Below are positions 44,727 to 61,682 of a stretch of 64,000 nucleotides of DNA, one piece after another. This DNA is from an uncultured Eubacteriales bacterium (lineage in GTDB: Bacteria > Bacillota > Clostridia > Christensenellales > UBA1242). Both the position numbers and the translations under genes were made by a program. Each line of letters starts with the position of its first letter. Positions within the stretch are counted from its first letter, which is position 1. Below the pieces are notes generated by a model. That model saw only the letters and a program-made list of their open reading frames with translations. It was not told the origin of the DNA and ran no database searches. The DNA lies in NCBI GenBank assembly GCA_948695535.1, contig CAPRTS010000004.1:37608-101607 (forward strand), given 5' to 3'.

Positions 44727-45281
44727 ATGACCACTGATTATACTCAACAACGCAACTTTATTGCACACTATGCTGATTGCTATAATGCCGATCGTTGTAA
44801 GCGGGTAAAATTGACGCCGCAAATGATGGATAAAATGTACAATTTTTTGTCTAACGCAACCATTGACCAACTTTATAATGCGTGTCAATTCGTGATTGAG
44901 AAAGAAATAAATTACCATTACCGTGACGCTAAGCAAACATCGGTTGACGCGGAAATGGAAGAAACTTACCACATTCTTGGCTTGCATTTTTGGGGAAATT
45001 TGCGTAATCGTTTATACGAGTACAATCGTACCGGGATAAAAGATTTTTATAAGGCGGTGGCAACTGACCAACAGAATATGGCCTATACAGTACATAGTTT
45101 GCAAAAAACTTATACTGAACGCTATGGTTGGCAAAGTACCACTTTGATTGATAATAACCAACAAGGCTTGCAATGTGAACTGGCAACCAGTCAAAGTAAA
45201 TTGGCTTTGTTGCGACAAATTATGAGTTACGCCCCGAAATGGCAGTGCCAAGACCAAGAGCCAGGTCGAGAGCGCGGTTAA
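44727..45281 (+). CDS. hypothetical protein abutting the mobile-element junction (possibly truncated)
   Basis: 184-aa ORF with an AAGGAG SD and no family recognised. Its last 270 nt are overlapped antisense by the recombinase ORF. Confidence 0.5.
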   Translation: MTTDYTQQRNFIAHYADCYNADRCKRVKLTPQMMDKMYNFLSNATIDQLYNACQFVIEKEINYHYRDAKQTSVDAEMEETYHILGLHFWGNLRNRLYEYNRTGIKDFYKAVATDQQNMAYTVHSLQKTYTERYGWQSTTLIDNNQQGLQCELATSQSKLALLRQIMSYAPKWQCQDQEPGRERG

Positions 45282-46805
45282 ACATACATATGGTGGCGTG
45301 GATGGCAGATTGAACGAACTAGCATCATCATAAATCGCGTTATTGATTTTTTGCTCCATATTTTCACTTTTTTCTAAAGACAATCTCTCTTTTGATTTAT
45401 CGACAATGTTGAAAATAACAATAATTTTATTAGGATACAAGCGAATTTCTTTTACTAAGGAATTGATTAACGCTTTTCGAACTTTGACGCTGTTTAATTT
45501 AGTAAATAAGTGTGAACGCAAAAAATCTTCTATATCTGTTTTTTCTAAATAGCCATAACTTCGATTTCTTTCGTTGTTTATCTTGGTTTCAATTTCGTTT
45601 AATTCAACTTCTAATTCATTCAAGCGTTTTTGTGTGAAATCAGAAATAATACCTTGCTCAATTGCTTTAACTATGTTTTGGATAGCCCTAGCAGTTTCTT
45701 TCTTCTTGTTCTCAAGAATGGCCAGATTGGAATCGTCGGTGATTTTCTTATGTAAGTAATCATAAACTTTATTAACAATAAAAATTAAGTTTTCTTCGGT
45801 ATACATTACTTTGCAGATTGTGTCGATGACTAAATCTTCAATATATTCTTTAGCGATTTGTTTAGTATCGCAGCCTTTGGGTTTATGGCGATTTCTATTA
45901 CAAATATAATAATAGTAACTTGTTTTATTCTGACTAGTGCCGCTGACACCAGTCATTTTCTCGTTGCATAAACCACAAACTAATTTACCACTGAGAATGT
46001 AGTTATAAACTGATTTTACCGAATGACGCGAATGCTTATTCTTCTCAAGTAGGGCTTGAACTTGTTCCCAAAGATTATCGTTAATAATTTGTGGATAGAT
46101 ATTAGTAAAGATTTGCCCGCGATGTTCGGTCTTTCCGTTATAGTGTTGTTTGTGTAAAACATGGAAGATATAACGTTCTGTAAAATATTGTCCAGTAGGG
46201 CGCACAAAACCATGGTCATTTAAGTCATCAGCAATTTCATGTGCGGTATAACCTTGGGCATATTTAGTAAAAATTAAGTTAATGATTTTGCGTTCTTTTT
46301 CATTGATAACAAATTTTTTATTGATAATATCATAACCAATAAGTTTGCCACCACCGGTTGCATTGCCTTTCATCCAACTTTCGTATAAACCGCGATTTAC
46401 TTTTTGGCGTAATTCTGCACTATAATATTGATTAATTCCTACAATAACAGATTCCATTAAAGCTCCTTCGGGGCTATCCGGAATATTTTCCATTACAGAA
46501 ATAAGTTTCACGCCATTGTCTTTTAAGGTTTTTTTATGAATGACAGTTTCATATTGGTCACGGGAAAAACGGTCAAGCTTGTACACTAAAACATAATCCC
46601 ATTTTCGTTTCGCTGAGTCTTTAAGCATTCGTTGAAAATCCTTACGGTTATCATTTGTTCCGGTTACCGCACGATCAATATATTTATCGACAATCACAAT
46701 ACTATTGCGATTGGCATAATCTTGACAAACACGAACTTGTCCCTCAATGCTTTGTTCGGTCTGCTTATCACTGGAATAACGGGCGTAGATTACCGCAGTT
46801 TTCAT
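45012..46805 (-). CDS. large serine recombinase
   Basis: N-terminal resolvase domain (AVIYARYSSDKQ, VYKLDRFSRD), recombinase domain, zinc ribbon (CGLCNEKM...YYYICNRNRHKPKGC) and coiled coil. The last ~90 codons (45012-45281) run antisense through the neighbouring ORF and are probably read-through past the element end. Confidence 0.9.
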   Translation of the reverse strand: MKTAVIYARYSSDKQTEQSIEGQVRVCQDYANRNSIVIVDKYIDRAVTGTNDNRKDFQRMLKDSAKRKWDYVLVYKLDRFSRDQYETVIHKKTLKDNGVKLISVMENIPDSPEGALMESVIVGINQYYSAELRQKVNRGLYESWMKGNATGGGKLIGYDIINKKFVINEKERKIINLIFTKYAQGYTAHEIADDLNDHGFVRPTGQYFTERYIFHVLHKQHYNGKTEHRGQIFTNIYPQIINDNLWEQVQALLEKNKHSRHSVKSVYNYILSGKLVCGLCNEKMTGVSGTSQNKTSYYYYICNRNRHKPKGCDTKQIAKEYIEDLVIDTICKVMYTEENLIFIVNKVYDYLHKKITDDSNLAILENKKKETARAIQNIVKAIEQGIISDFTQKRLNELEVELNEIETKINNERNRSYGYLEKTDIEDFLRSHLFTKLNSVKVRKALINSLVKEIRLYPNKIIVIFNIVDKSKERLSLEKSENMEQKINNAIYDDASSFNLPSTPPYVCLTALSTWLLVLALPFRGVTHNLSQQSQFTLTGCQFTLQALLVIINQSGTLPTIAFSISFLQTMYCIGHILLVSCHRLIKIFYPGTIVLV

Positions 46806-46823: not shown

Positions 46824-46970
46824 TTTGTCTTTCGACGGAGCGTAAAAAACGAAAACTCTTATTTGCTTAATGTTTTAAGTTCTACTGATTTGCCGCAAGG
46901 GCTGGGGACCAGTGCAGTTTACCCTTGCGACAAATATGTTTTCGTTTACGCTCCACAGGCGAAAGACAAA
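46824..46970 (-). ncRNA. nested-stem structured leader (three-way junction) immediately 5' of the recombinase SD
   Basis: Hand-folded stems: 11 bp (46824-34/46960-70), 10 bp (46837-46/46945-54), 7 bp (46850-56/46938-44), 13 bp (46889-901/46922-34), 5 bp (46866-70/46875-79). One position is C.A on the plus strand but G.U on the minus strand. Confidence 0.45.
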
Positions 46971-47787: not shown

Positions 47788-48993
47788 ATGTTACAACGCA
47801 ACGAATATCTTAGTAAGTTAATCAAGTGGAAGCACGAAAAACTTATCAAAGTTGTAACCGGGATAAGAAGGTGTGGAAAATCAACTTTATTAAAATTGTT
47901 TGAGAATTATCTTAAAGACAACGGAGTAAATGATTCTCAAATCATTTCAATCAATTTTGAAGATCTACAATTTGAAGAGTTGCGTGATTATAAAGTGCTA
48001 TATAAATACATTTGTGAAAAGTTATGCAAGGATCAATGGAATTATATTTTGCTTGATGAAATCCAAAATGTTGCTAATTTCCAAAGAGTGGTAGACAGTT
48101 TATATGTACAAGATAAAGTCGATATTTATATTACTGGTTCTAATGCGTATACCTTGTCAGGTGATCTTGCTACCTTACTTTCGGGAAGATATATTGAAAT
48201 ATCCATGTTGCCACTTTCTTTTAAGGAATATTACGAATTAAATGGAAATCTTACCAAAGATGATGCCTTCGCAAGGTACCTGAAAAATGGTGGTTTTCCA
48301 TATACCGCCGTTATGAATAATGACGAAAAAATTGAAGATTACCTTGAAGGTATCTACAATACAATCATTGTTAAGGATGTTGAAGAAAGGCAAAACAGAT
48401 CGAACAAGGATATAAATTTTGACGTGGCATTATTAAAATCTATCACAAGATATTTAGCGGATGTGATTGGTAATCCTGTAAGTATAAAGGGCATTACAGA
48501 TTATCTCAATTCTAACAATCGGAAAGTTTCTGACCATACAGTTAGTACTTATGTTACGGCACTTACAGCCGCATTTATTTTTTATCCAGTTGAGCGTTAC
48601 AATATTCAGGGTAAGGAAATCCTAAAAACGAATAAAAAGTTTTATATCGTTGATGTTGGATTGAGAAATCATCTCATCACAAAACGAAATTTAGATCTGG
48701 GTTTTATGCTTGAAAATATAGTCTACCTTGAACTAATCAGGCGAAATTATAAAGTTAATGTTGGTAAAGTTGGGGATAAGGAAATTGACTTTGTCGTGCA
48801 AAAGAATGGAGTTACTGAATATTTTCAAGTCTCTGCGAACGTGAGTGACGAAAAAACTTTTGCAAGAGAAATTTCCCCGCTTGAATCAGTGAAAGATAAT
48901 TATAAAAAGACCATCTTAACGTTAGATAAATTCACGACCGGTAATTACAATGGAATTCTTGTCGAAAACGCGATCGATTGGTTATTGCAATAA
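47788..48993 (+). CDS. AAA-type ATPase (AAA_14 + DUF4143 architecture)
   Basis: Walker A GIRRCGKST and Walker B ILLDEIQ. Length and C-terminal region fit the DUF4143 ATPase family. Confidence 0.75.
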   Translation: MLQRNEYLSKLIKWKHEKLIKVVTGIRRCGKSTLLKLFENYLKDNGVNDSQIISINFEDLQFEELRDYKVLYKYICEKLCKDQWNYILLDEIQNVANFQRVVDSLYVQDKVDIYITGSNAYTLSGDLATLLSGRYIEISMLPLSFKEYYELNGNLTKDDAFARYLKNGGFPYTAVMNNDEKIEDYLEGIYNTIIVKDVEERQNRSNKDINFDVALLKSITRYLADVIGNPVSIKGITDYLNSNNRKVSDHTVSTYVTALTAAFIFYPVERYNIQGKEILKTNKKFYIVDVGLRNHLITKRNLDLGFMLENIVYLELIRRNYKVNVGKVGDKEIDFVVQKNGVTEYFQVSANVSDEKTFAREISPLESVKDNYKKTILTLDKFTTGNYNGILVENAIDWLLQ

Positions 48994-49096: not shown

Positions 49097-49270
49097 CTAT
49101 AATGCTCCCGTTAACTGATTGCTGAGAGCAAAGCGAACTGGCGTTCGTAATTGGCTAGGTCGATTTAAGTTTGCCAAATAGTGGCCACAAGGCAAACAAT
49201 CGCCGGGAATAGTGATTCCATTTTAGAACGCTCTTGGTAAGTTCAGTTAAACGAAAAATGGAGGTGCTGT

Positions 49271-49534
49271 ATGGCAAAACAAAATAAAGAACGCCGTTGG
49301 GCAATCCCCAGTAAGCGCGCGGAAAGCTTTGCAGACGAACGCAGAGCCAAAGTTCACAAGCATGGGGAAAAAGAAGGTAAACCCTTGACCGATTACGAAG
49401 CGGGTTTGCGTTCGGGTTACTTAATGTGTCGTTCCGACCAAGCGGGTTTGTACAAGTACAAAACTGCATTAGGGGAAGGCAAATCAAAAGCCGAAGCGAA
49501 ACGCCTTTCACGCATTATTGGGAAAGGCAAATAA
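49271..49534 (+). CDS. small highly basic protein
   Basis: 87 aa, Lys/Arg-rich, no TM. GGAGGTG SD. First gene of the inovirus-like module. Confidence 0.5.
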   Translation: MAKQNKERRWAIPSKRAESFADERRAKVHKHGEKEGKPLTDYEAGLRSGYLMCRSDQAGLYKYKTALGEGKSKAEAKRLSRIIGKGK

Positions 49535-49543
49535 GGAGGGGAA

Positions 49544-49885
49544 ATGGAAAAGAAAATTTTAGTTGAACGCGAAACTTACGAGAAAAATGGCAAGACTTTT
49601 TACAGTTATTTCGTGAAAGGTACCTTGCGGCGTAAACCAGTAAAAGCCAGTATGTCGCCAATGGATATTGGTGGTTATGCGGTACTGGACATTGTGTTTG
49701 GTAACGCCATGACTGCGGAATTGGTGATTACACCCTACGAACTGCACGATGAAAAGTCGGGGCGCACGATTAACGGTAACTCGTATGCGGTGCGTTCTAC
49801 GGACGAGAATGGGGAAGTCTTTGAATGCAAGATTAAACCCTACCGTAACAGCGACAAAATGCTTTTGCAAATGTTGCTGAAATAA
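49544..49885 (+). CDS. hypothetical protein (ssDNA-binding protein candidate by position only)
   Basis: 113 aa with an AAGGAGG SD and beta-rich composition. Confidence 0.45.
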   Translation: MEKKILVERETYEKNGKTFYSYFVKGTLRRKPVKASMSPMDIGGYAVLDIVFGNAMTAELVITPYELHDEKSGRTINGNSYAVRSTDENGEVFECKIKPYRNSDKMLLQMLLK

Positions 49886-49952
49886 AACTGACGACAGGAC
49901 AAGGGAGTAGTTTAACTACTCTCTTGTTTGCTGTCTTAAAAGGAGAGAAACG

Positions 49953-51215
49953 ATGCGAATTGCAATCAAAATTGCCAATGTGGCGTTAGTATTAGTGACA
50001 GTCATGGCGGTTTTAATGACCTTACTTTTAATCTACTTTAAGACGTTTGGTAAGAACAAACTGCCAACCAGTATCACTTCTACTTATGCCACAACAGTTT
50101 ATGATCCAGTTACTGATCGAGATTTACCAGTGCTGGAAGCTAATTATTATGCAAACAAAAATAACCACGGCTACGAAGTAATTGAGTTTAGGATTAACAG
50201 TTATAGTGGATTGTCGAAATCGGCGGTGTATGCCCGTGGCTTTCAAATGACCTGGGATACGAATGGTAAAATTATCCCGTATGTTAACCCGACTACTGGT
50301 GAAAGCAGTGATGTTTTTTATTACGATAGTTTTAATAATGCTTCGTTTGAAACGGGGCACACCTATGGCTGGGGCGATAAAATGTATATTGATTTGGACG
50401 GCGATACTTATGCTGTGGCCATGGATGGTACTTACCAAACTAGCACCACAGGGTTTGATTTAGGTAAGTCGACCGGTAACTTTTTTAAGGCATTTTTTAC
50501 GGATTGGGGGATGTTTAGCCAAGGTAGTAATTGGAACACAACCACGTATTACGACCACAAATACACCTACGTTGATTTATTACTGAAAATTAGACAAATT
50601 ATTAAGTCAAGTTCAAACGGTACTGGTGATGGTGTACTTAGCTTAATTGACTTAGGCGATTTTTTGCACATTTATGAATTAGACGAACATGGTAATGCTA
50701 AACCCGACCCGATTGGTTATAACGGGTTAATTAATAGTTACTTTACCATGTCCACGCACTATGATCAACGCGGCATGGTTTGGACAAAACAATCTTTATT
50801 TCAAAGTGTAGCCGGTGATAGTGAATTTAATTTGACAGGAATTACTGACGAAGTTGAATATTGGCAAGCAACAACAACTTATAATCTAACTGAACAAAAT
50901 TTTGTGCCACGCTACAGTACGGCGGATAATGGCTTTTATTATGTGTTGCCAACCGAACTGATTAACGAATTAAAGAATTATGACCAGATTGAAATTAATG
51001 TAGTGTTTAATCTTGATAACCTGAATGTCAATGTCTTGGGTTTTGATTATTATGCGCTTAATGGCATTACGGTTAAGCAATTAACCATTAGCAGTACCAC
51101 AGAACGCGAATTTCGTTTAATGGTGGGCTCACTGAAAGATACCGGCTTAACCGCAGAAAGCATTACCACCATCAATGTAAAACTAATTAACACGAATTCG
51201 GGGGTGGTGTTATGA
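49953..51215 (+). CDS. N-terminally TM-anchored protein (virion/adsorption protein candidate)
   Basis: 420 aa with signal-anchor IANVALVLVTVMAVLMTLLLIYF. Translationally coupled to the next gene (ATGA). Confidence 0.55.
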   Translation: MRIAIKIANVALVLVTVMAVLMTLLLIYFKTFGKNKLPTSITSTYATTVYDPVTDRDLPVLEANYYANKNNHGYEVIEFRINSYSGLSKSAVYARGFQMTWDTNGKIIPYVNPTTGESSDVFYYDSFNNASFETGHTYGWGDKMYIDLDGDTYAVAMDGTYQTSTTGFDLGKSTGNFFKAFFTDWGMFSQGSNWNTTTYYDHKYTYVDLLLKIRQIIKSSSNGTGDGVLSLIDLGDFLHIYELDEHGNAKPDPIGYNGLINSYFTMSTHYDQRGMVWTKQSLFQSVAGDSEFNLTGITDEVEYWQATTTYNLTEQNFVPRYSTADNGFYYVLPTELINELKNYDQIEINVVFNLDNLNVNVLGFDYYALNGITVKQLTISSTTEREFRLMVGSLKDTGLTAESITTINVKLINTNSGVVL

Positions 51216-51715
51216 AGTGGAAACATTATTTAATTTGCGCAATCTTAATCATTGTTGGGATGGTTTGTGGCATTGAGTTATTTCGTATATTAGATATTAA
51301 GAGCGGAGAATATGGTTCGGTGTTTGTTTATGACGAACTCAATTCTTACCAAGAATTTTCTAAATTTGATTACGGAATCATTGATTTTGCCACCGATGAT
51401 TTTGTGAACTATACCAGCATTACTACTTATGCTAACCAAGATTTTGACGGCACCAAAAGTGATTACTATTTATTTTTCAATGGTCGTCCTTTGAACAATG
51501 TTACGCAAACCGCCGGCAAAATAAGCGGTGATTTAATAATTAAGTTTTATGATTTAGACGGAATAGTGATTACCACCGCACAACTGAATTTCACGGTGGA
51601 GTATTTAGCCAATAGTACCAAAGTAACCATTGCCACACATAACCAAAACAATTCGATTTCGTATCTGAATGCCTACATGAACATTAACGGGGCGGTCTTA
51701 AAGGTGGTGTTGTGA
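51212..51715 (+). CDS. N-terminally TM-anchored protein
   Basis: 167 aa with anchor HYLICAILIIVGMVCGI. Overlapping stops and starts on both sides. Confidence 0.5.
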   Translation: MKWKHYLICAILIIVGMVCGIELFRILDIKSGEYGSVFVYDELNSYQEFSKFDYGIIDFATDDFVNYTSITTYANQDFDGTKSDYYLFFNGRPLNNVTQTAGKISGDLIIKFYDLDGIVITTAQLNFTVEYLANSTKVTIATHNQNNSISYLNAYMNINGAVLKVVL

Positions 51716-53550
51716 TGAATTTGAAAGCCTTAATTGTGAGTATCATTTCCGTAATTACGGTTGCAATCTTGGCGATTGTCGGGTATTGCTGCTGGCCCAT
51801 GATTACCGCCAGCATTACGGATAACAAATATTACACTTACGAAGAAATCCAACAAAGTTACCAAGACGGCTATAACGATGGTGCTAAAAGTGAAAGTGAA
51901 CTGATTGCACAAGTTGCGTATTATAAAACTTTGGTCGATGAGTATTACAACAATGTCAATACCTTAAATAACGAGATTAGTTTATTAAGTAAAAATAACC
52001 AAGGATTAAAAGAACGAATTGACCGATTACAAAATACGGAACAAGCACAAGCCAATACGATTGCTAACTTGCAAGGCATTATTGCTGCTAACCAGACAGT
52101 GGTTGACGACCTGAATAATCAACTATATGTCTTAAAAAAGAACATTAAGTATTACGAACAAGTCATTGCTAATCTGGAATTAGAAAACCAAGTAGTCGCG
52201 ACATTTGAGTTTAACGGAATAATTTGTAACATTCAATTACTAGACTATAACGCCATTGCTGCTGATCCCAATCCGGCTTCGACGGAGAACATAATCTTTA
52301 ACGGCTGGACGGTTAATGGGGAACCCGTCGATTTGAGTACCTATCATATTACCAAGAATACTCGTTTCGTCGCCGATGTTATTTATCGCTATACCGTCAA
52401 TTTCACAGTCGATGGTGAGAATATTGAACAGCAAATTTTAGTTAAGGACCAAACGGCAGCATTGCCCGAAACTCCAGTTAAAGATGGTTATGAATTTGAT
52501 GGTTGGTCAATAGATGGCACGAATTTGATTGGTGTTGCTAACACGCCGATTACGGCGGATACCAATTATTTCGCGGTATTTACTAAATTACACACAGTAA
52601 TCTTTAAGCAAGACGGAAAGACTGTTGTTAATCTAACTGTTCGTGATAACGATTATGTTAATGCCCCTGATTTAACATTGGCAGATAACATAATTTTTGA
52701 CGGCTGGTTGGTGGATGGTGAATTAGTTGAAGTTGCGAATTATCAAATTAAGTGTGATGTAACGTTTGTTGCCAGTTTAACCAAAAAAGAAAGTTACTTT
52801 GAACCGGTAAGTTTCACAGTTGTTAATGATAAAAATTTGTCGGGAGCAAGCATTTGGTCAGATGGTGAGAACCTATATTATTCATCAAGTAGTACGCAAT
52901 ACGTTTATAACCATAATACCGGTGAGTGGTCAACTAAGACTTGGAGTGGTAGCCTTACATCATTTAGCGCCAGTTATATTTGGTCGGATGGAACTAATAT
53001 TTACTACTCAACTTATTTGAAACAATATGTCTTAAATAAAGCCACGACAACTTGGGAAGAAAAGGTTTGGGGTGGCATGGCTTACCCCAATAAAAGTGAA
53101 ATATGGACGGACGGTACCGATATTTATCTATCGACGATGAACCCGAACAACAACTATATTTTGAATCGTCAAAATTCAACGTGGGTCAAAATTTCTTGGC
53201 AAGGCGTGTATAACGACTATTTTCATGGCAGTCGGATCTGGTCCGATGGGGTAAATACCTACTTTTCGTTAAGGGATGATTACCAATATGTATTACAAAA
53301 AGGTACGAATACCTGGGTAAATAAAACCTGGAATGGCTTTGTTCCACAAGTGACTAGTTATATCTGGTCCGACGGCGAAAACACTTATTATTCAGATGTC
53401 ACTAACAATCAATTTTATGTATTAGATGTTGCCACTTCAACTTGGCTGCCTAAGAAATGGAATATCTATCTTGATCCAAAGTATTTTTGGTGGGATGGCG
53501 ATACGATGTATTATTCCAGTGGAAAAACGCACTATGTGTTGGTGAAATAA
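51715..53550 (+). CDS. TM-anchored coiled-coil protein with three Flg_new-type repeats and a six-fold W-[ST]-D-G-x-N-x-Y-[YF]-S repeat domain
   Basis: N-terminal TM and coiled coil (aa ~60-160). FNGWTVNG, FDGWSIDG and FDGWLVDG repeats, then six ~45-aa repeats. GTG 51712 is an alternative start. Confidence 0.65.
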   Translation: MNLKALIVSIISVITVAILAIVGYCCWPMITASITDNKYYTYEEIQQSYQDGYNDGAKSESELIAQVAYYKTLVDEYYNNVNTLNNEISLLSKNNQGLKERIDRLQNTEQAQANTIANLQGIIAANQTVVDDLNNQLYVLKKNIKYYEQVIANLELENQVVATFEFNGIICNIQLLDYNAIAADPNPASTENIIFNGWTVNGEPVDLSTYHITKNTRFVADVIYRYTVNFTVDGENIEQQILVKDQTAALPETPVKDGYEFDGWSIDGTNLIGVANTPITADTNYFAVFTKLHTVIFKQDGKTVVNLTVRDNDYVNAPDLTLADNIIFDGWLVDGELVEVANYQIKCDVTFVASLTKKESYFEPVSFTVVNDKNLSGASIWSDGENLYYSSSSTQYVYNHNTGEWSTKTWSGSLTSFSASYIWSDGTNIYYSTYLKQYVLNKATTTWEEKVWGGMAYPNKSEIWTDGTDIYLSTMNPNNNYILNRQNSTWVKISWQGVYNDYFHGSRIWSDGVNTYFSLRDDYQYVLQKGTNTWVNKTWNGFVPQVTSYIWSDGENTYYSDVTNNQFYVLDVATSTWLPKKWNIYLDPKYFWWDGDTMYYSSGKTHYVLVK

Positions 53551-54392
53551 TGATTACCATTATTTTTGCCCCACCACGAACGGGGAAGACTTGTTACATG
53601 ACGCACTGCTTAAATCAATTTGCTTTTGACAAAACGCGTAATCGTAAAATGGCCAATGAGATAACAAATAAGAATGAATGTGGTTTTAATTTAAGTGTCC
53701 CTAAACACTGTGTTAGTGCGAATTACGCCATTACTTTCCGTAAGTTTCGTTACCGCCCACGCACCAGTCGGATGATTAACCCATTTCGGTTGGGGTTTGC
53801 TAATCCGTATGTTAAGACCCATTTTAATCTGCCTTACGAAGTAATTGGCATTACGGAAGCTCAAAAATACTTGAATAGTCGCATGAGCATGTATTTCCCT
53901 GAATGGCAGAGCCGGTGGTACGAACAGCATGGACACAATAATTTAGATATTTATTTAGACACCCAACGCCCAATGTTAATTGATGTGAACATTAGAGAGT
54001 TAGCCCAGTTTGTGGAAATCGTGCAACTGTGGCTGACTTACGATGACCGTAAACGGGTTTGTGGTTTGCGATGGTTAATTCGTAAGATTGCCAATAGTCA
54101 GTTATTTGATCGTTATCTGGCCTCTGGGAAACAGGATACCGCGTGCTACACGGAAGAATTCGTGGTGGCTGATTACAATGTGTTCGCGATGTACGATAGC
54201 CAGTGTTGTAAGCCCAAATTCTATGCGGGACATTTTGACGAAGATTTTGATTACCAAGCAAGTCAGCCCACGGAAGAATCTTTACAAGGTTACCTTGACT
54301 ACCTAGAAAATAACGATGACGAGTTGCCAGCAAATTTTTATGTTAAAAGGAGTAAACCCGATGCTAAACTTTCACAAGAACGATTTAATTGA
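53550..54392 (+). CDS. Zot/pI-like P-loop NTPase (filamentous-phage assembly ATPase family)
   Basis: MITIIFAPPRTGKT Walker A at the extreme N-terminus, VIGITEAQ Walker B, and HGHNNLDIYLDTQRP, as in the Zot family. TAATG coupling to the upstream gene. No TM seen. Confidence 0.7.
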   Translation: MITIIFAPPRTGKTCYMTHCLNQFAFDKTRNRKMANEITNKNECGFNLSVPKHCVSANYAITFRKFRYRPRTSRMINPFRLGFANPYVKTHFNLPYEVIGITEAQKYLNSRMSMYFPEWQSRWYEQHGHNNLDIYLDTQRPMLIDVNIRELAQFVEIVQLWLTYDDRKRVCGLRWLIRKIANSQLFDRYLASGKQDTACYTEEFVVADYNVFAMYDSQCCKPKFYAGHFDEDFDYQASQPTEESLQGYLDYLENNDDELPANFYVKRSKPDAKLSQERFN

Positions 54393-54585
54393 TGCCACCT
54401 TAGTGCGGTATTACCAAAGTTTTGAACACACTTTAGATACCGTGGATTATGTGCCAGAAAAATACAATCAAAAAATTTGTCAGTACATTTTTAAGAATAT
54501 GAAACGAACTTTCCGCAAGATTGATCGGGAAGATCGTAAATACCAACGGCAGTTGCGTAAAGGCGGTGGTGATGGCGTATCTTGA
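54361..54585 (+). CDS. hypothetical small protein
   Basis: 74 aa from ATG 54361 (AAGGAG SD). Overlaps both neighbours. Confidence 0.4.
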   Translation: MLNFHKNDLIDATLVRYYQSFEHTLDTVDYVPEKYNQKICQYIFKNMKRTFRKIDREDRKYQRQLRKGGGDGVS

Positions 54586-55498
54586 TGCAAAAGTGTATTT
54601 TGATGGCAGCCATTATATTGCGATTCCTCACATCACAAGGTTTGTAAAGAAACGAAAGCTAACTCCAGAAGAACCACTTATGCAAGGTGAACAGGACTTG
54701 GGGACGCCCAAGCCCTGTCTGCCGTTGCCTTCACGCAAAGCATTGTTTAACGAATTATACAAGGAACACATTGATTTACCACGCCGTGAACGCGTAGCAA
54801 AAATTACCCAAGCAATGACGCCATATTTCAAGGATAACGAACAATGTCAAAACTTTCTACAACGCCAAATGGAACGCAAAAAACGAAACTTAATCGCTCG
54901 TCGTACACGAATGTTTCGTAAAGCTAGCTTAATTGATTTTAATTACTTCGCAACATTTACTTACGATGACGCGAAACATACTGAACAATCGTTTAAGAAA
55001 GGTTTGCAAACTTGTTTCCGTAATTTGTGTTATCGCCAACATTGGCAGTATCTGGGCGTTTGGGAACGGGCACCCGTAACCAAACGGTTGCATTTCCACG
55101 GTTTATTCCGTATTGCGTCAGAAGCCATGGTTGGTGAATTATTTAGCCATACCGATTACAATTTGTCTTTACATAAACGAACCACGACCATTCAAAACAG
55201 TTATTTTAATGGTCGGTTTGGTCGTACTGATTTTGAATATATCGCCAGCAATAAAGACCTAATCAGAGAACTGCAATACATCTGCAAATACTTAGAAAAA
55301 ACGGAAGAAAGAATTGTGTACAGTAAAGGTCTGTACCAATACTTTGTGAGTGACATCATGAATACGGATGTGGTCTGTCGGATTGGCCGCGAAGACCGCA
55401 AACTTTTGCTGTTTGATGATTTTACTTGTATCAACACTGGTAAAATCCAAGGCAAAGTTAGCCCGACGACGATTGCCAAAATGCGAAAAAGTAACTGA
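54572..55498 (+). CDS. HUH rolling-circle replication initiator (Rep)
   Basis: Motif I FATFTY, motif II LHFHGLF (HUH), motif III YICKYLEK (catalytic Tyr), in canonical order and spacing. Confidence 0.75.
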   Translation: MAYLDAKVYFDGSHYIAIPHITRFVKKRKLTPEEPLMQGEQDLGTPKPCLPLPSRKALFNELYKEHIDLPRRERVAKITQAMTPYFKDNEQCQNFLQRQMERKKRNLIARRTRMFRKASLIDFNYFATFTYDDAKHTEQSFKKGLQTCFRNLCYRQHWQYLGVWERAPVTKRLHFHGLFRIASEAMVGELFSHTDYNLSLHKRTTTIQNSYFNGRFGRTDFEYIASNKDLIRELQYICKYLEKTEERIVYSKGLYQYFVSDIMNTDVVCRIGREDRKLLLFDDFTCINTGKIQGKVSPTTIAKMRKSN

Positions 55499-55667
55499 CG
55501 GACGGTGTGCTGGGCGCTGGCTTTAGCCCGCCAGCCACCGCTTGTGGACGCGTTACAGTGGTGGAGTGGCGGGTGCTTGTTGGCGGAGCTTTAGCGACGC
55601 CACTTGTTATATACAAGCACACGCCGCGCTCTCAAAGTATACTTTTTAAGGTTAAAAGGAGAGAAAA

Positions 55668-56585
55668 ATGCTATACAAAGAATGGTTAGCAACTTGGTTG
55701 GAAAACTATGTTAAACCAACAAGCAAAAGCCGTACCTATGCGCGTTACACGGAACTGGTGCGGCAACACCTTGGCGGGGTGGGTGATTACGCATTGGGCG
55801 AACTGACGCCGTTGGTTTTGCAACAATTTGTCATGAGCTTGTTGCAAGGTGGTAACTTAAAGACACGGCAAGGTTTGTCGGCTAATTCCGTCAATACGAT
55901 CATCTCGGTAATGCAAAGTTCCTTAAAGACGGCGTATAACCTGAGACTAATTGCCGAAAATGTTGGCACTAAAATTCAACGCCCCAAGATTACGGAAAAA
56001 CAAGTCGTATGTTTTACCGTTACAGAGCAGAAGCAAATTGAACAATTTGTTTTGACCAGCAAGAAAAAGAAATTGTACGGCATTATCGTGTGCTTATACA
56101 CCGGTTTACGTATTGGTGAACTATTGGCGTTAAAGTGGAACGACATTGATTTTGGTAAGGAGTTATTACACGTCAATCGTACTTGTTACGATACGCGTCA
56201 TGGCCGAGTCGACGACACGCCCAAAACCAAAACTTCGGTACGGGTGATTCCTATTCCTAAACCAATCATGGCCTTGTTTAAGGAATTAAAACGGGCAACC
56301 AATCACGCTTACGTCATCACCAACCACGACCAAATTATTGCGGTACGTTCGTACCAACGCAGTTTTGAACTGCTATTAAAACGCTTGCACATTACCCACA
56401 AAGGCTTTCATGCGTTACGCCATACCTTTGCGACACGGGCTTTGGAGTGTGGTATGGACGTCAAAACCTTGTCCGAGATTTTAGGTCATAAAAATTCGCA
56501 AATCACCTTAAACCGTTACGCCCATAGTTTGATCGAACACAAAATTGATGTCATGAATAAGCTGGGCAAATTGTTGCAAAATTAA
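55668..56585 (+). CDS. tyrosine recombinase / phage integrase
   Basis: N-terminal SAM-like domain. LRIGELLALKW (Arg), HALRHTFAT (H-x-x-R), LGHKNSQITLNRYAH (His...Tyr). Confidence 0.9.
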   Translation: MLYKEWLATWLENYVKPTSKSRTYARYTELVRQHLGGVGDYALGELTPLVLQQFVMSLLQGGNLKTRQGLSANSVNTIISVMQSSLKTAYNLRLIAENVGTKIQRPKITEKQVVCFTVTEQKQIEQFVLTSKKKKLYGIIVCLYTGLRIGELLALKWNDIDFGKELLHVNRTCYDTRHGRVDDTPKTKTSVRVIPIPKPIMALFKELKRATNHAYVITNHDQIIAVRSYQRSFELLLKRLHITHKGFHALRHTFATRALECGMDVKTLSEILGHKNSQITLNRYAHSLIEHKIDVMNKLGKLLQN

Positions 56586-56718
56586 AAATATTAGCAAGCT
56601 ATAGAATTTTCCAAACCAATAATGATTTGTTGAGAATAATGATTAAAGATTTTAGACAAATAACTAATTAATTTTGATTATTGTGTTAGTAATAGTATAA
56701 TAGTGATGTAGGAGATAT

Positions 56719-57555
56719 GTGGTGAAGAACGAAGTTGTTGTTAAAGGTATCAATGTAAATTATAGAAAGATAAATCAAGAAGATTATATTTCTTTAACAG
56801 ATATTGCAAAAGCAAGAAACGCAAAAGAGCCAAAAGATGTTGTTAAAAGTTGGCTGAGAAGCAGAGCCACCCTTGAATACTTGGCATTATGGGAGAACTT
56901 TTATAATCCAAATTTTAAATGGGACGAAATCGACCCCTTATTAGCACAAACTGGTAAAAATGATTTCACTATGTCTCCAACTCGTTGGATAGAAGAATTT
57001 AACGCTATTGGTATAACTGCTAAGCAGGGTAAAAATGGTGGAACTTATGCTCACCAAGATATTGCCTTTAAGTTTGCTAGTTGGATTTCTGCTGAATTTG
57101 AATTTTATTTAATTAAAGAATTTCAACGGCTAAAAATACAGGAACAACAAAGTTTAGAATGGAACGCCAAAAGGGAACTTGCCAAACTAAATTACCATAT
57201 CCATACCGATGCAATAAAGGAAAATTTAATTGTGCCAACACTGACAAAGAGTCAAATCAATTTTGTCTATGCTAGTGAAGCGGATGTGTTGAATGTCGCT
57301 TTATTTGGAAAAACTGCTGCCGAATGGCGAAAAGAAAATCCTATTCTTAAAGGTAATATCAGAGATTACGCAAGCATTGAGCAATTATTAGTGATTGCTA
57401 ACATGGAAAGCTTAAATGCCTACTTAATTGAGCAGAATATCACACAAAGTGAACGGCTTGTGCAACTTAACAGCATGGCAAAATCTCAATTAAGAGTTTT
57501 GCAACAAGTAAATTCAAAATTACTCTTAACGGATGAAAAAATTAACAATAACTAG
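56719..57555 (+). CDS. KilA-N domain protein
   Basis: N-terminal YISLTDIAK...GTYAHQDIAFKFASWISAEFEFYLIKEF matches the KilA-N pattern. GTG start with an AGGAG SD. Confidence 0.75.
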   Translation: MVKNEVVVKGINVNYRKINQEDYISLTDIAKARNAKEPKDVVKSWLRSRATLEYLALWENFYNPNFKWDEIDPLLAQTGKNDFTMSPTRWIEEFNAIGITAKQGKNGGTYAHQDIAFKFASWISAEFEFYLIKEFQRLKIQEQQSLEWNAKRELAKLNYHIHTDAIKENLIVPTLTKSQINFVYASEADVLNVALFGKTAAEWRKENPILKGNIRDYASIEQLLVIANMESLNAYLIEQNITQSERLVQLNSMAKSQLRVLQQVNSKLLLTDEKINNN

Positions 57556-57599: not shown

Positions 57600-57622
57600 C
57601 CACCGAATAATCTATTCGGTGG
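57600..57622. terminator. 10-bp perfect hairpin (CCACCGAATA-ATC-TATTCGGTGG); strand of action ambiguous
   Basis: An A-run lies upstream and there is no T-run downstream on the plus strand. The T-run follows on the minus strand. Confidence 0.4.
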
Positions 57623-57792
57623 ACAAATTTCACCTTAATTATATTCAAACTATCATTAAATTGCAAGTATTTTTATCATTTATGTACAGCTAACGACTTT
57701 TATTATTGTTTTAGCCCTTGTTTTGTTCATCAAATAGATTATTCGGTGAACAAAATCTCTGCAAAATGTTCATCTAAAAGGGGCATGGGAAA

Positions 57793-60700
57793 ATGAAAAA
57801 ATTGAAAAATTGGTTCAAATGTTTGGTACTGGTCGGTGCGTTATTGTGTACCGGCGTAGGAATGTCCGCGTGCAGCTTTGGATTTGGTAACCAAACTCAA
57901 TCTTATAAGATTACTTATTATGCCAACGACGGAACTGAAAGTTATCGAACCGAAACTTGTTATGATTATCAAAAAGATGCCTTTACTATTGGAGTGGGCA
58001 TGGGTTTTGACCGTCCGTGGTATCGCTTTGTGGAATGGAATACTGCGGCAGATGGCACCGGTACGGCTTATGAATCGTGTGCTGAATACCAAATCACCGG
58101 TGATCTTAATCTGTACGCTATTTGGGAAGATGCAACACGGCAAATTACTTATCACGCTAACGATGGTACGGAACAAACTACTATCCAGACATTTGATAGC
58201 AGTCGTTATGTAAACCTAAAAGCGAATAATGCATTTACGCGGACCGGGTACGAAATTACCAAATGGAACACAACTGCGGACGGTAGTGGTACTGTGTACT
58301 ATCCCGGCAACTCTGATAAATTGACCGATAACCTAGATTTGTATGCGGTTTGGCAATTAAAAAATTATTCTCTATCTTACAATTATTATACTGACAATGG
58401 TTCTTCTTTGTCGGGTGTAACCAAAGCAAATAATCCGTCAAGCTACAATGTTGAAACCCCGACCATTACACTACAAGCACCGAGTAAAACTGGTTATACT
58501 TTTGAAGGCTGGTATCGCGAACGCGAATTCATTAACCCTGTAACCGAAATTACCCAAGGTTCGACGGGGGATATTCGCTTGTATGCAAAATTTTCGCTAA
58601 TACCGTATACCATTACCTATGAACTAGACGGTGGCACAAATGGTGATAACCCGTCGACATATAATGTCACGACTTCGACATTTACGCTGCAAGCGCCGAC
58701 AAAGGATGGGTATACTTTTGATGGTTGGTATCGTGAATCTGAATTTATTAACCGCGTAACCCGAATTACCCAAGGCACGACGGGGGAGATTACCCTATAT
58801 GCTAAATTTACATTAACTAATTATTCAATCACCTATGTACTAAACGGTGGTGTTAATGGTAATAATCCGTCTGCGTACACTATAGAAACGGATAGTTTTG
58901 CTTTGTCAATGCCAACTAAAAATGGTTATCACTTCGATGGCTGGTATAGTGAAAGTAATTTCGTTAATCAAGTGACTGAAATTACTAAAGGGACGATGGG
59001 GAACATTACTCTGTACGCCAAATTTGAGTCAATTTCTTATACTATTACTTATGAGCTGGACGGTGGTGTCAATGGGAATAATCGGTCAGTTTACACTTGC
59101 ACAAACAGTTTTATTTTGCAAGACCCGAGTAAAAACGGTTATTACTTTGGTGGCTGGTACAGCGATAGTAATTATGCTAACAAAGTTACTCAAATAAAGT
59201 ATGGCACCACGGGAGATATAACTTTGTACGCAAGATGGTGCACAAACGAAGACATTTATAACGTTGATAATGACACCATCATAGGACTTAACGACATTGG
59301 AAAGACTTTATCGTTAAAGATACTAGACATTCCTAGTCAAATTAAAGGTGTCAACATTACGGCGATTGGTTTGGAGGCGTTCCGCAATAATAAAACTTTA
59401 ACCAAAGTCGTCATTCCAGCTGGTATAACCGACATTGGTAATGATGCGTTCTATAATTGCAGTATGTTGAATGAAGTTCATATTACCGATTTAAGTGCTT
59501 GGATTCAAATTGATTTTGGTAATAAGTTCGCTAATCCGCTATGCTCTAATGATAATGAAGTCAACTTATACCTTAATGGTGAGATGGTGACTGATTTAGT
59601 TATCCCTGATGGGGTAATTCATATTGGTAGTTATGTTTTCTATGGTCGTAAAGATATAACCAGTATAACAATTCCCGACTGCGTGACCAGTATTGGCAAT
59701 TACGCGTTTGATGGTTGCAGTGGCTTGACCAGTGTGATAATTGGTAGTGGTGTAACAAGTCTCAATGGATTCTCTTTTAGCGGAAATACGAATTTAACTA
59801 CAGTGGTGATTGGTAACAATGTGACCAGCATAAGTAATGGTGCATTCTCTGGTTGTTCGTCACTACAAAATATTACCTTACCGTTCGTGGGTGACAGTGC
59901 AAATGCAACAGATGCTGCGTCTTTATTCGGTTATATTTTTGGTACTAGTAAGTACATTGGTGGTACTAGCACTCGACAGTGTTATACAAGTTCAGATGCT
60001 GTGTATTATATCCCAACAACGTTAACAACTGTGACCATTACAGGGGGTAGGATTTCGTATGGTGCGTTCTATAATTGCAGTGACTTGACGAGTATAACAA
60101 TTGGTAACGGCGTGACTAGTATTGGTATTTCTGCGTTCAAGAATTGCAGAAATTTAACAAATATTACGATCCCCGATAGCGTGACCAGTATTGGTTGTGC
60201 TGCGTTCTCTGGTTGTTCGTCACTACAAAATATTACCTTACCGTTCGTAGGATATGAAAGGGATGCAACAGATACTTCGTCCCGGTTTGGTTATATTTTT
60301 GGTTATAGCAGTTTTAATGGTGGTATCAAGATAGAACAGGGTCATTCTTCTTCTGCTGCGACCTATTACATTCCAGCAACATTAACTACTGTGACCATTA
60401 CAGGAGATAACATCCCATCTGATGCGTTCTGTAGTTGCTTTGGCTTGACGAGTATAACGATTAGTAATGGTGTGACCAGTATTGGTGATAAAGCGTTCGA
60501 ATATTGCAGTAAATTGACGAGTATAACGATTGGTAATAGCGTGACCAGCATTGGCAAGTATGCGTTCTATTATTGTAGTAGTTTAGCAAATATTACGATT
60601 CCCGATAGCGTGACCAGTATTGGCAATTCCGCGTTTGATGGTTGCAGTGGTTTAACTAGTGTGATAATTGGTAACGGTGTGACAAGTCTCAATGGATTTT

Positions 60701-61629
60701 TTGGCGGAAAGGCTAATTTAACCACAGTGGTGATTGGTAACGGCGTGACCAGTATTGATAGTTGTGCGTTCGTTAATTGCAATGGCTTAACGAGCATCAC
60801 GATTCCCGATAGTGTGACCAGTATTGGTGTTTCAGCTTTCAGCGGTTGTATTGGTTTGACGAGTATAATTATTCCCGATAGCGTGACCAGTATTGACAAT
60901 TACGCGTTTGAAGGTTGCAGTGGCTTGACGAGTATAACGATTGGTAATAGCGTGACCAGCATTGGCAAGTATGCGTTCTATTATTGTAGTAGTTTAGCAA
61001 ATATTACGATTCCCGATAGCGTGACCAGTATTGGTGATGAAGCGTTCGAATATTGCAGTAAATTGACGAGTATAACGATTGGTAATAGTGTGACCAGTAT
61101 TGGTGTTTCAGCTTTCAGCGGTTGTATTGGTTTGACGAGTGTAATTATTCCCGATAGCGTGACCAGTATTGGTGTTTCAGCTTTCAGCGGTTGTATTGGT
61201 TTGACGAGTGTAATTATTCCCGATAGCGTGACCAGTATTGGTAATTCCGCGTTTTATGGTTGCAGTAACTTGACGAGTATAACGATTGGTAATAGCGTGA
61301 CCAGTATTGGTGGTTCAGCTTTCAGAGGTTGTATTGGTTTGACGAGTATAATTATTCCCGATAGCGTGACCAGCATTGGCGGTTCTGCGTTCGAGGATTG
61401 CAGTGGTTTAACCAGTGTAATTATTCCCGATAGCGTGACCAGTATTGGTAATTACGCGTTTGAAGGTTGCAGTGGTTTGGAGAGTGTAACATTTGCAGAT
61501 ACTGATGGTTGGTATATTTCAAACACCTCTGGTGCGACCAGCGGCATTAATTTGACTTTGACTGATGCAGCTGCTAACGTAAGGTACTTGACCAGTTATT
61601 ACGAGAATTATTATTGGTATAAGGGTTAA
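57793..61629 (+). CDS. BspA-type leucine-rich-repeat surface lipoprotein with N-terminal Flg_new repeats
   Basis: Lipobox LLCTGVGMSAC. About 7 Flg_new/InlB-B repeats (Y.I.Y..NGG...F.GW). More than 25 23-aa LRR_5-type units (IPDSVTSIGNxAFxGCSGLTSVxI). Confidence 0.85.
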   Translation: MKKLKNWFKCLVLVGALLCTGVGMSACSFGFGNQTQSYKITYYANDGTESYRTETCYDYQKDAFTIGVGMGFDRPWYRFVEWNTAADGTGTAYESCAEYQITGDLNLYAIWEDATRQITYHANDGTEQTTIQTFDSSRYVNLKANNAFTRTGYEITKWNTTADGSGTVYYPGNSDKLTDNLDLYAVWQLKNYSLSYNYYTDNGSSLSGVTKANNPSSYNVETPTITLQAPSKTGYTFEGWYREREFINPVTEITQGSTGDIRLYAKFSLIPYTITYELDGGTNGDNPSTYNVTTSTFTLQAPTKDGYTFDGWYRESEFINRVTRITQGTTGEITLYAKFTLTNYSITYVLNGGVNGNNPSAYTIETDSFALSMPTKNGYHFDGWYSESNFVNQVTEITKGTMGNITLYAKFESISYTITYELDGGVNGNNRSVYTCTNSFILQDPSKNGYYFGGWYSDSNYANKVTQIKYGTTGDITLYARWCTNEDIYNVDNDTIIGLNDIGKTLSLKILDIPSQIKGVNITAIGLEAFRNNKTLTKVVIPAGITDIGNDAFYNCSMLNEVHITDLSAWIQIDFGNKFANPLCSNDNEVNLYLNGEMVTDLVIPDGVIHIGSYVFYGRKDITSITIPDCVTSIGNYAFDGCSGLTSVIIGSGVTSLNGFSFSGNTNLTTVVIGNNVTSISNGAFSGCSSLQNITLPFVGDSANATDAASLFGYIFGTSKYIGGTSTRQCYTSSDAVYYIPTTLTTVTITGGRISYGAFYNCSDLTSITIGNGVTSIGISAFKNCRNLTNITIPDSVTSIGCAAFSGCSSLQNITLPFVGYERDATDTSSRFGYIFGYSSFNGGIKIEQGHSSSAATYYIPATLTTVTITGDNIPSDAFCSCFGLTSITISNGVTSIGDKAFEYCSKLTSITIGNSVTSIGKYAFYYCSSLANITIPDSVTSIGNSAFDGCSGLTSVIIGNGVTSLNGFFGGKANLTTVVIGNGVTSIDSCAFVNCNGLTSITIPDSVTSIGVSAFSGCIGLTSIIIPDSVTSIDNYAFEGCSGLTSITIGNSVTSIGKYAFYYCSSLANITIPDSVTSIGDEAFEYCSKLTSITIGNSVTSIGVSAFSGCIGLTSVIIPDSVTSIGVSAFSGCIGLTSVIIPDSVTSIGNSAFYGCSNLTSITIGNSVTSIGGSAFRGCIGLTSIIIPDSVTSIGGSAFEDCSGLTSVIIPDSVTSIGNYAFEGCSGLESVTFADTDGWYISNTSGATSGINLTLTDAAANVRYLTSYYENYYWYKG
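60514..60623 (+). repeat. 110-bp exact repeat, copy 1 (copy 2 at 60925-61034)
   Basis: Identical strings read in both places, in frame within the LRR gene. Confidence 0.85.
60925..61034 (+). repeat. 110-bp exact repeat, copy 2
   Basis: See copy 1. Confidence 0.85.
61102..61239 (+). repeat. perfect 69-bp tandem duplication (2 units, each GVSAFSGCIGLTSVIIPDSVTSI)
   Basis: Units 61102-61170 and 61171-61239 are letter-for-letter identical. Confidence 0.9.
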
Positions 61630-61652
61630 ATTTAAAAATACAAATGGAACAC

Positions 61653-61681
61653 AAAAAAGCCAGAGAATATCTGGCTTTTTT
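61653..61681. terminator. bidirectional terminator between convergent genes
   Basis: A6-GCCAGA-GAATA-TCTGGC-T6. Confidence 0.7.
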
Positions 61682-61682
61682 G

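Follow-up and report, generated by a model that had tools for sequence, protein, structure and literature searches.

A probable temperate inovirus-like element of about 20 kb integrated in the genome of an uncultured gut Clostridia bacterium

What is known of filamentous phages in gut bacteria with a single membrane comes almost entirely from sequence data. According to Sugimoto et al. (2021; PMC8530359), a Zot protein without a transmembrane (TM) segment is the rule for Firmicutes-associated gut inoviruses, and the Clade-1 genomes described there (Ino-01 to Ino-06) have predicted Clostridiales hosts and a stand-alone Zot that lacks a C-terminal extension. The features by which Roux et al. (2019) recognize inoviruses include a pI/Zot-like ATPase, a Rep with a structured origin and short single-TM proteins. 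We analyzed 64,000 nt of contig CAPRTS010000004.1 (positions 37,608 to 101,607; this stretch is called the window and the contig C4) from an uncultured Eubacteriales bacterium (GCA_948695535.1), whose genome of 0.9 Mb is 82% complete and consists of 18 contigs. An initial annotation had flagged positions 49,097-56,718 of the window as an inovirus-like module. The locus encodes a TM-less ATPase of the Zot type and a Rep followed by a structured origin; short single-TM proteins were not found in it. We put the probability at roughly 0.68 that a temperate element of about 20.4 kb, inovirus-like (Tubulavirales-like), is integrated here and that the flagged block is its replication and morphogenesis core.

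All nine open reading frames (ORFs) of the block were found in the sequence with the lengths, the motifs and the start/stop overlaps of ATGA/TGATG/TAATG type that the initial annotation had reported. The features of the core and of its right border are:

49271-49534, plus strand: p87, 87 aa, basic and helical, a hallmark of the family and a candidate DNA-coating protein
49544-49885, plus strand: p113, 113 aa, beta-rich, a candidate single-stranded DNA (ssDNA)-binding protein and gene V protein analogue
49900-49926, plus strand: hairpin after p113, at the position where relatives have the small gene s52 (and s64) and then a terminator hairpin
49953-51215, plus strand: p420, 420 aa, predicted structural protein with an N-terminal TM anchor (hydropathy)
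51212-51715, plus strand: p167, 167 aa, predicted structural protein with an N-terminal TM anchor (hydropathy)
51712-53550, plus strand: p612, with a TM anchor, a coiled coil, Flg_new repeats and a repeated W-x-D-G-x-N-x-Y-Y-S domain
53550-54392, plus strand: Zot/pI-like P-loop ATPase, stand-alone, 280 aa from the ATG giving MITIIFAPPRTGKT
54316-54585 (ORF; gene listed as 54361-54585), plus strand: p89, 89 aa, whose true start is probably an internal ATG giving MLNFHKNDL
54521-55498 (ORF; gene 54572-55498), plus strand: HUH rolling-circle Rep of the G2P/ORF2 type (PF23343)
55507-55632, plus strand: two-hairpin origin region, defined by ssDNA folding, alignment and covariation
55668-56585, plus strand: tyrosine recombinase (Phage_integrase), in the cargo slot

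The ATPase carries the motifs PPRTGKT, ITEAQ and HGHNNLDIYLDTQRP. Zot was its sole match in Pfam (E = 5e-4), with a score of 19.9 bits that lies slightly under the cut-off of 20.3 bits, and nine of 15 members of the ATPase family matched the same Pfam entry. The search against PHROG returned PHROG 197, 'Zot-like', at 1.4e-8, and a profile of the family matched PDB entry 2r2a (3.4e-6), which we take to be the N-terminal domain of a Neisseria Zot-like protein. The Rep, in which the HUH and Tyr motifs were found (FATFTY, HFHGLF, YICKYLEK), matched Pfam REP_ORF2-G2P (PF23343) with 31.9 bits, above the cut-off of 27.8 bits. Among the findings that, according to the initial annotation, would refute its reading were an ATPase closer to non-phage P-loop families and a Rep of a plasmid or IS91-type family. 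The ATPase matches only Zot-type families, and the Rep is of the G2P/ORF2 type and not of the IS91 type.

No TM segment was detected by hydropathy in the Zot ATPase (maximum 0.97 over its 280 aa), p87, p89 or the Rep, in agreement with the earlier observation that the Zot-like protein is TM-less. Strong N-terminal TM segments are present in p420, p167 and p612 (19-aa windows of 2.5-2.8). The surface-protein repeats noticed previously in p612 are Flg_new repeats (Pfam, 5e-18), with the repeat families D1 and D2. Counterparts of p612 are highly variable among relatives, reaching up to 1195 aa and in some cases containing LRR_5, and p612 is a candidate receptor-binding tip protein. Searches of Pfam and PHROG gave no family match for p87, p113, p420, p167 or p89.

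The hairpin-rich GC island that had been noted beside the Rep gene proved to be a conserved, origin-like structure. About 130 nt after Rep fold as ssDNA into two hairpins (z = -3.5), both of which are kept in an alignment of 32 elements, with compensatory changes at 31 of the 37 predicted pairs. The outer stem of hairpin 2 is nearly invariant (GGCGTGTGCTTGTCT / AGACAAGCACACGCC) and its inner stem covaries. This hairpin also has a conserved unpaired ACTTGT(A)TCA bulge (ACTTGTATCA), which presumably resembles the CTTG/ATA nick sites of the phiX174/pC194 class and is, by this analogy, the likely nick site of the Rep. Similarity between elements ends exactly after hairpin 2.

Close homologues of the ATPase, 270-285 aa long, number more than 845, and none of them has a precomputed Pfam domain. 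A scan of species-representative genomes yielded 80 loci from uncultured Clostridia/Christensenellales and from cultured isolates, the relatives belonging to Christensenellales/Pumilibacteraceae-type Clostridia. Within the host family, 46 of 151 genomes, representing 26 of 58 genera, encode a Zot homologue, and the host genome itself holds four Zot-type loci, located on C4, on C6 and twice on C2 (one of them with an internal stop). The lineage is common in small-genome gut Clostridia and partly catalogued. The host genome contains two penicillin-binding protein (PBP) genes and no secretin was found in it, which indicates a walled, single-membrane host and bears out the Gram-positive-type host proposed initially.

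Over the 80 loci a chain of genes is conserved, composed of p87, p113, a variable membrane-anchored block, Zot, p89 and Rep; it is also present in the cultured mouse-gut isolates Pumilibacter muris, P. intestinalis and Anaerocaecibacter muris. The conservation of p87 and p113 equals that of the ATPase. p87 is 55-74% identical across 23 aligned relatives and is small and stands alone wherever it occurs (167 cluster representatives out of 1.84 billion); its AlphaFold model consists of four helices at low confidence (predicted local distance difference test, pLDDT, 64), and no match was found in Pfam, PHROG or the PDB, a profile search of the PDB included. p113 is conserved in 30 relatives, and its model (pLDDT 91) shows six long strands and two helices. 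Comparison of this fold with the PDB and BFVD gave nothing significant (best E 0.02-0.03), the weak matches including nsp9 and SSB-type proteins. p89 follows Zot in nearly all related loci (40-73% identity), the Rep is 46-59% identical in relatives, and p420 homologues are either 50-73% or about 24% identical. At least three unrelated versions of the structural block occur among the relatives, which fits a role in host recognition. A much shorter module was observed in A. muris (L082), consisting of a helix-turn-helix (HTH) gene, an 86-aa ORF, a 112-aa TM protein, Zot (299 aa) and a p89-like gene; p87 and p113 are missing from it.

The flagged interval had been taken as the whole element. Conserved family genes lie outside it on both sides, and judged by this conservation the block is only the core of a unit of about 20.4 kb that runs from window position ~45,300 to ~65,700, beyond the end of the window. 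The 6.4-kb core (49,271-55,632) is compact and co-directional, and the conserved ~20-kb unit adds a recombinase and an operon on the opposite strand. The features outside the core are:

45012-46805, minus strand: large serine recombinase (LSR; Pfam Resolvase, Recombinase and Zn_ribbon_recom)
46824-46970, no strand assigned: hairpin A, a long nested DNA hairpin directly before the LSR start codon
47352-47678, plus strand: p108, a putative early or regulatory protein with an IRxDLxEIKYYYS motif
47788-48993, plus strand: AAA_14/DUF4143 ATPase (Pfam AAA_14 4e-34, DUF4143 1.5e-17)
56719-57555, plus strand: KilA-N domain protein (Pfam KilA-N 5e-21; PHROG 2657), cargo
57793-61629, plus strand: BspA-type LRR / Flg_new surface lipoprotein, 1278 aa (Pfam LRR_5, Flg_new), cargo
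61574-64000 and on, minus strand: antisense operon with a 130-aa ORF, a PcfJ-like gene (61993-63306) and a PcfK-like gene (63303-63890)
~65,470-65,670, no strand assigned: hairpin B, a 210-nt nested hairpin at the end of the antisense operon

In most relatives with enough flanking sequence, an LSR gene of opposite orientation lies 1-3 kb ahead of p87, and behind it come genes for a LexA-like repressor, a zinc-ribbon protein and a homologue of p108. From this recurrent position the LSR is the probable integrase of the element. Its homology to other LSRs stops near residue 470-500 (about 45,300), and its final ~90 codons run antisense into the host ORF 44727-45281; the loss of homology and the read-through into the host ORF place the left junction near 45,282-45,330. 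Homologues of p108, for which Pfam gave no match, were found between LSR and p87 in more than 30 related loci (30-48% identity). The AAA_14/DUF4143 gene occupies the place of the LexA-like repressor and the zinc-ribbon gene of the relatives, has no homologue in related loci and is likely accessory. A string resembling a tRNA 3' end (TTCAATCTGCCATCCACGCCACCA) is located in the LSR tail on the minus strand (45,282-45,310); it was dropped from consideration, as it matches none of the 41 tRNA/tmRNA genes of the genome. Other LSRs of the host genome (on C6 and at C5:61,210-62,784) end on tRNA genes, the stop codon of the one on C6 abutting the 3' end of tRNA-Gln(ttg).

On the right side, the antisense operon continues with four further genes past the window end, up to ~65,359, and contains the families PcfJ (Pfam, 5.5e-25), PcfK (1.4e-5) and DUF7222. 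Homologues of PcfJ/PcfK and of the genes beyond were found in 15 loci, on the opposite strand and 5-10 kb downstream of Rep, past the variable cargo. Each of the two opposite-strand units, the LSR and the PcfJ/PcfK operon, is fronted by one long nested DNA hairpin. Hairpin A folds as ssDNA with -46.7 kcal/mol (z = -6.2); hairpin B has z = -6.8 and is kept in L076 and L080, the two relatives with enough sequence. Both hairpins have the outer-stem motif TTTGYCTTTCG...CGAAAGRCAAA in common. By analogy, hairpin A is a candidate single-strand promoter or complementary-strand priming site. A weak inverted match (ATGATGAT) between ~45,320 and ~65,685 was not above chance and was discarded.

These outer genes also bring in a reading without any virus, in which an integrative element would transfer naked or protein-coated ssDNA in a conjugation-like manner, Zot pumping the DNA and the TM-anchored proteins forming an apparatus for mating or adhesion. 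PcfJ and PcfK come from conjugative-plasmid families, the hairpins are similar to the single-strand promoters (Frpo/ssi) found in the leading regions of plasmids, the element is larger than classical inoviruses, and a recognizable coat protein is lacking. However, family searches of the element proteins revealed no relaxase, coupling protein or VirB4-type ATPase, the ATPase and the Rep fall into Zot and filamentous-phage G2P/ORF2 families, the gene order mirrors gV-gVIII / gIII-gVI-gI-gII, and a relative with 30% identity is a 9.8-kb circular genome. We therefore regard transfer of this kind as unlikely.

The tyrosine recombinase behind Rep (Pfam Phage_integrase, 4e-27) had been read as the integrase of a self-contained unit of about 7.6 kb (49,097-56,718). 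The same order of Rep and recombinase recurs on C6 and in L043, it is published for one Clade-1 gut inovirus, Ino-06 (PMC8530359), and the junction on C4 as well as on C6 carries the perfect 12-bp palindrome AAAGTATACTTT. Among the 80 relatives, however, the recombinase follows Rep in a single locus and is absent from this position in the other 79; no second copy of the junction core was found near the left side; and p108 and LSR on the left and PcfJ/PcfK on the right are conserved outside the interval. In addition, homologues of the enzyme occur in non-phage contexts. Two paralogues are encoded in the host genome, one on C6 (90% aa identity) directly after the Rep of a different element and one on C7 (63%) before a methyltransferase operon, and homologues of about 50% identity were detected in 19 of 81 host-family genomes beside methyltransferase, surface-protein, KilA-N and other non-phage genes. 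Given the rare linkage to Rep and the non-phage contexts, the tyrosine recombinase is probably not the integrase of the element, and the recurrent LSR at the left end points the same way; a 7.6-kb unit is accordingly very unlikely. Of the inovirus-like module proposed initially, the class is supported by Zot, the G2P-type Rep and the origin; the extent and the tyrosine integrase are not supported.

Homology between C4 and C6 begins at an identical base, 35 nt before the recombinase start codon, at the palindrome (window 55,634-55,645 and C6:21,144-21,155; nowhere else in the genome). The Reps of the two contigs are unrelated (G2P type vs circovirus-type Viral_Rep with SF3 helicase), and their LSRs are 33% identical. 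From this alignment we take the shared base to be where a common cargo module begins and not to be a host junction. A CTXphi/XerCD-style host-recombinase site at the palindrome was rejected in favor of a shared cargo-slot junction, because the conserved antisense operon lies beyond the cargo. The cargo slot between hairpin 2 and the antisense operon contains the tyrosine recombinase, the KilA-N gene and the gene for the 1278-aa surface lipoprotein; on C6 the surface-protein gene follows the recombinase with no KilA-N gene between them. In relatives the slot is occupied by methyltransferases/restriction-modification, YpsA and HTH genes and a retron-type reverse transcriptase. The tyrosine recombinase is more likely a site-specific, invertase-type enzyme that would serve the adjoining surface-protein gene. 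Inverted repeats of 27 nt (57601-57627 / 57722-57748, 89% complementary) flank 94 nt upstream of the 1278-aa gene and downstream of the recombinase and could constitute an invertible promoter; the same upstream region is present, 80% identical, before a gene for a 943-aa surface protein on C6. Since the cargo varies (recombinase and large surface protein here; restriction-modification, retron-type reverse transcriptase and YpsA elsewhere), the elements may reshape the surfaces and the defence of their hosts.

We next consider the coat gene. The initial annotation had seen no coat-like ORF of 60 aa or more, and when every ORF of 20-130 aa in either strand between 45,000 and 55,700 was checked, this held down to 20 aa, as no free-standing hydrophobic ORF with a ribosome-binding site was found. 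Every hydrophobic candidate sits inside a longer gene in another frame; the 66-aa frame in p420 (50263-50463) was rejected for want of a ribosome-binding site. In 40 of the 80 genome loci, a 52-aa protein, s52, is encoded between p113 and the p420-type block, with a good ribosome-binding site and a terminator hairpin behind (consensus MKxLxLIILIIVLVVLFGTWPLSILAKxFE...WLAKxLNFFGWNGIL). About half of these loci also encode s64, a TM protein of 64-72 aa whose N-terminus is basic and whose C-terminus is acidic. s52 is present in all relatives that combine a p420/p167-type block with sufficient upstream sequence, including the closest one, L009 (80% identity in Zot, 73% in p420). In the window the p113 stop codon is followed by the hairpin and then by p420, and alignment with L009 and L026 shows a clean absence of s52 and s64. 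A homologue of s52 was found nowhere in the window and is present on C6 and C2. In 16 relatives with other structural blocks there is no free-standing small TM ORF at all, showing that a pVIII-type coat is not universal in the lineage. The absence of a coat gene is thus in part a feature of the lineage and in part due to a loss in this copy, from which, to judge by the comparison of the loci, a module-specific membrane protein has most likely disappeared.

The absence of s52 means that the copy may be defective or dependent on the C6 element. Such a copy would replicate and integrate, having lost s52, the LexA-like repressor and the zinc-ribbon gene, and would leave the cell with the help of C6 proteins or not at all. 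All 40 sampled s52 loci place the gene just before the p420-type module and the window alone has p420/p167 without it, the C6 element carries s52 and p420/p167/p602 at 68% nucleotide identity, the AAA_14/DUF4143 gene stands in place of the regulators, and another Zot-bearing element, which has no structural genes, is proposed to be a satellite in a 2026 preprint. On the other hand, no other core gene is damaged and the recombinase has its full length, the clean passage from p113 through the hairpin to p420 could reflect natural variation, and s52 may be dispensable in view of the 16 relatives that do without a small TM gene. We consider a defective or helper-dependent copy a serious possibility, although not the favored one.

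The same observations allow a more speculative proposal for the lineage, a particle without a pVIII-type coat. The universal, highly expressed and soluble p87 and p113 would coat the ssDNA, the TM-less Zot and the module-specific anchored proteins would export about 20 kb of it, and the integrase and the PcfJ/PcfK establishment operon would be expressed from fold-back single-strand promoters. This proposal is rather doubtful; if true, the lineage would rank as a family-level group next to the known filamentous phages, one with a novel virion design and an entry programme resembling conjugation. A soluble, basic small protein and the lack of a helical hydrophobic coat would also suit a pleomorphic enveloped ssDNA virus similar to plasmaviruses or pleolipoviruses, which would bud with p420, p167 and p612 as spikes and p87 as nucleoprotein. 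The three proteins do combine an N-terminal anchor with a large ectodomain, and alphapleolipoviruses likewise pair a rolling-circle Rep with an NTPase. We regard budding as highly implausible, however, since the PBPs of the host imply a wall to be crossed, the Zot-type ATPase is a hallmark of filamentous phages, and searches of PHROG and BFVD gave no similarity to pleolipoviruses or plasmaviruses.

For the inovirus-like element, the genes suggest the following course. The Rep would nick the bulge of hairpin 2 and start rolling-circle synthesis of plus-strand ssDNA, which abundant p113 (beta-rich) and p87 (basic, helical) would coat. The Zot ATPase, together with p89 and the anchored p420, p167 and p612, would export the coated strand across the single membrane, p612 forming the adsorption tip. 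On entry into a new cell, the plus strand might fold into hairpins A and B and allow the host RNA polymerase to start on ssDNA, leading to early expression of the recombinase and PcfJ/PcfK and to priming of the complementary strand; the serine recombinase would then integrate the circle. Both the LSR and the PcfJ/PcfK operon use the presumed packaged strand as template.

Several points weigh against assigning the element to inovirus-like phages or against its proposed limits. Neither a particle nor ssDNA nor a circular form of the element was seen. The Zot match is remote, lying under the Pfam cut-off, and the only annotated phage with a similar ATPase is 30% identical. s52 and s64 match no coat family or solved structure, and no protein of the element matches inovirus coat families; with the 16 relatives devoid of a small TM gene, a defining inovirus feature is therefore lacking. 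A size of about 20 kb with opposite-strand operons is above the range of 5.5-10.6 kb for Inoviridae (ICTV profile, PMC8491893), and IMG/VR (2.9 million contigs) yielded no relative with the Zot protein and the family alignment as queries. The right end lies beyond the window and was placed where the conservation of the antisense operon ends. No att direct repeats were found that link the sides of the flagged interval or of the larger unit, and no empty site was detected in relatives, the left flank being not conserved at the DNA level among 60 related genomes. Weighing these points, the assignment as an inovirus-like temperate element is still probable.

Further loci in the host genome are related to the element. 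A second, different element is located at C6:20,204-31,540 (L003 and L193 cover parts of it). It contains s52 (63% identical to the copy of a relative), p420/p172/p602 with 68% nucleotide identity to the window genes, a Zot of 26% identity, the circovirus-type Rep (Viral_Rep and SF3 helicase) and the 90%-identical tyrosine recombinase. At C2:5,978-18,181 an s52 homologue (C2:6250-6405) and a p420/p167-like block are found with a Zot frame that has an internal TGA, and C2:83,585-89,605 encodes a 298-aa Zot, anchored proteins of 449 and 706 aa and an SSB-like ORF of 105 aa. Solitary G2P-type Reps, 46% and 42% identical to that of the window, are present at C1:102,311-104,910 and C5:65,036-67,724. 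Each is followed by a nested hairpin and a serine recombinase on the same strand as Rep, an orientation that misfits a simple model of an antisense gene read from the packaged strand.

Among the related contigs from other sources, L134 (12,724 nt) and L145 (11,821 nt) have terminal overlaps of 127 and 43 nt, which suggests that they are circular molecules; both have an IS30-like transposase instead of a serine recombinase. L152 and L159 (ERZ1090881, ~7.8 kb each) are covered 87-91x, compared with 2.6x for another related contig of the same assembly, which could mean that they represent replicating or particle-borne forms, although neither showed a terminal overlap. A 2026 preprint describes an element of ~15 kb with an 'inovirus gp2 family' gene in a Pumilibacteraceae genome, enriched in virus-like-particle DNA. 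It could not be linked to this lineage, its 15-bp direct repeat being absent from all loci examined and the copy in the genome of the matching species (L046) having a truncated Rep.

The lineage occurs in about 30% of the sampled genomes of a family of small-genome gut Clostridia, and relatives in the cultured strains Pumilibacter muris CLA-AA-M08, P. intestinalis CLA-AA-M10 and Anaerocaecibacter muris CLA-AA-M11 (loci L050, L071 and L082) make it accessible at the bench. The TM-less ATPase and the layout of Rep and recombinase are already published (PMC8530359 and PMC6813254) and hence not new. The parts of published inovirus accounts that were searched contained no ~20-kb architecture, pair of hairpin-fronted opposite-strand units, cargo slot or lack of a universal small coat.

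Besides host, Zot and the recombinase of Ino-06, the Clade-1 genomes share with the elements described here the exchange of non-homologous HUH Reps between genomes, as seen between C4 and C6 (PMC8530359). They are circles of 5.6-9.4 kb chosen by a recognizable inovirus major coat protein, whereas the element in the window is integrated, about 20 kb long and without a coat family; and the passages of that paper that were searched mention no serine recombinase, hairpin-fronted antisense operon or cargo slot. The survey by Roux et al. (2019; PMC6813254) agrees with our findings in the pI-like ATPase marker, in integration modules with serine recombinases, tyrosine recombinases or transposases, in the chronic or temperate lifestyle and in the expansion to Gram-positive hosts. 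It differs in that its detection needs single-TM proteins of 30-90 aa, of which this copy has none, and the relatives are absent from IMG/VR.

Among annotated phage records, a similar ATPase is found only in Bajarodino virus 12 (PQ006185.1), whose circular genome of 9.8 kb comes from rodent faeces and is filed under Inoviridae (30% identity over 85% of the protein, E = 1e-20). It has a short Zot (266 aa), an integrase and a repressor in common with the type of element described here, but several 60-aa ORFs and no other detectable protein shared with the element in the window. Plectroviridae of the SpV1 type gave their ORF2 name to the Pfam family of the Rep; they infect wall-less Mollicutes, however, and no plectrovirus record matched the ATPase in the phage collection. 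SpV1 phages carry an IS30-like transposase, as do L134 and L145.

With the Ff phages (M13/fd/f1) the element shares a rolling-circle Rep of the same Pfam family and the gene order, which runs from abundant small proteins over a terminator, a large adsorption protein, membrane proteins, the assembly ATPase and Rep to a hairpin-rich intergenic region with both origins. The minus-strand origin of Ff is a promoter-like hairpin used by RNA polymerase on ssDNA. Ff phages have the hydrophobic pVIII, pVII and pIX and a 6.4-kb genome without an integrase and without genes on the opposite strand. Their pI contains a TM segment as well as a periplasmic domain and acts together with a secretin, whereas the ATPase of the element is a TM-less protein of 280 aa in a genome without a secretin. 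The lack of a secretin and of a C-terminal TM/periplasmic domain is what a single-membrane host would lead one to expect, and it has been described for Firmicutes inoviruses (PMC8530359). Long imperfect hairpins with promoter-like hexamers directly before the genes needed first after ssDNA entry are also a property of the Frpo/ssi sequences of plasmids; the promoter role is a candidate function here, and in the C1 and C5 loci hairpin and recombinase are, in contrast, co-directional with Rep. Compared with the textbook design of filamentous phages, the lineage has no universal small coat protein, is about twice the classical size and has its presumed early genes in antisense orientation behind DNA hairpins.

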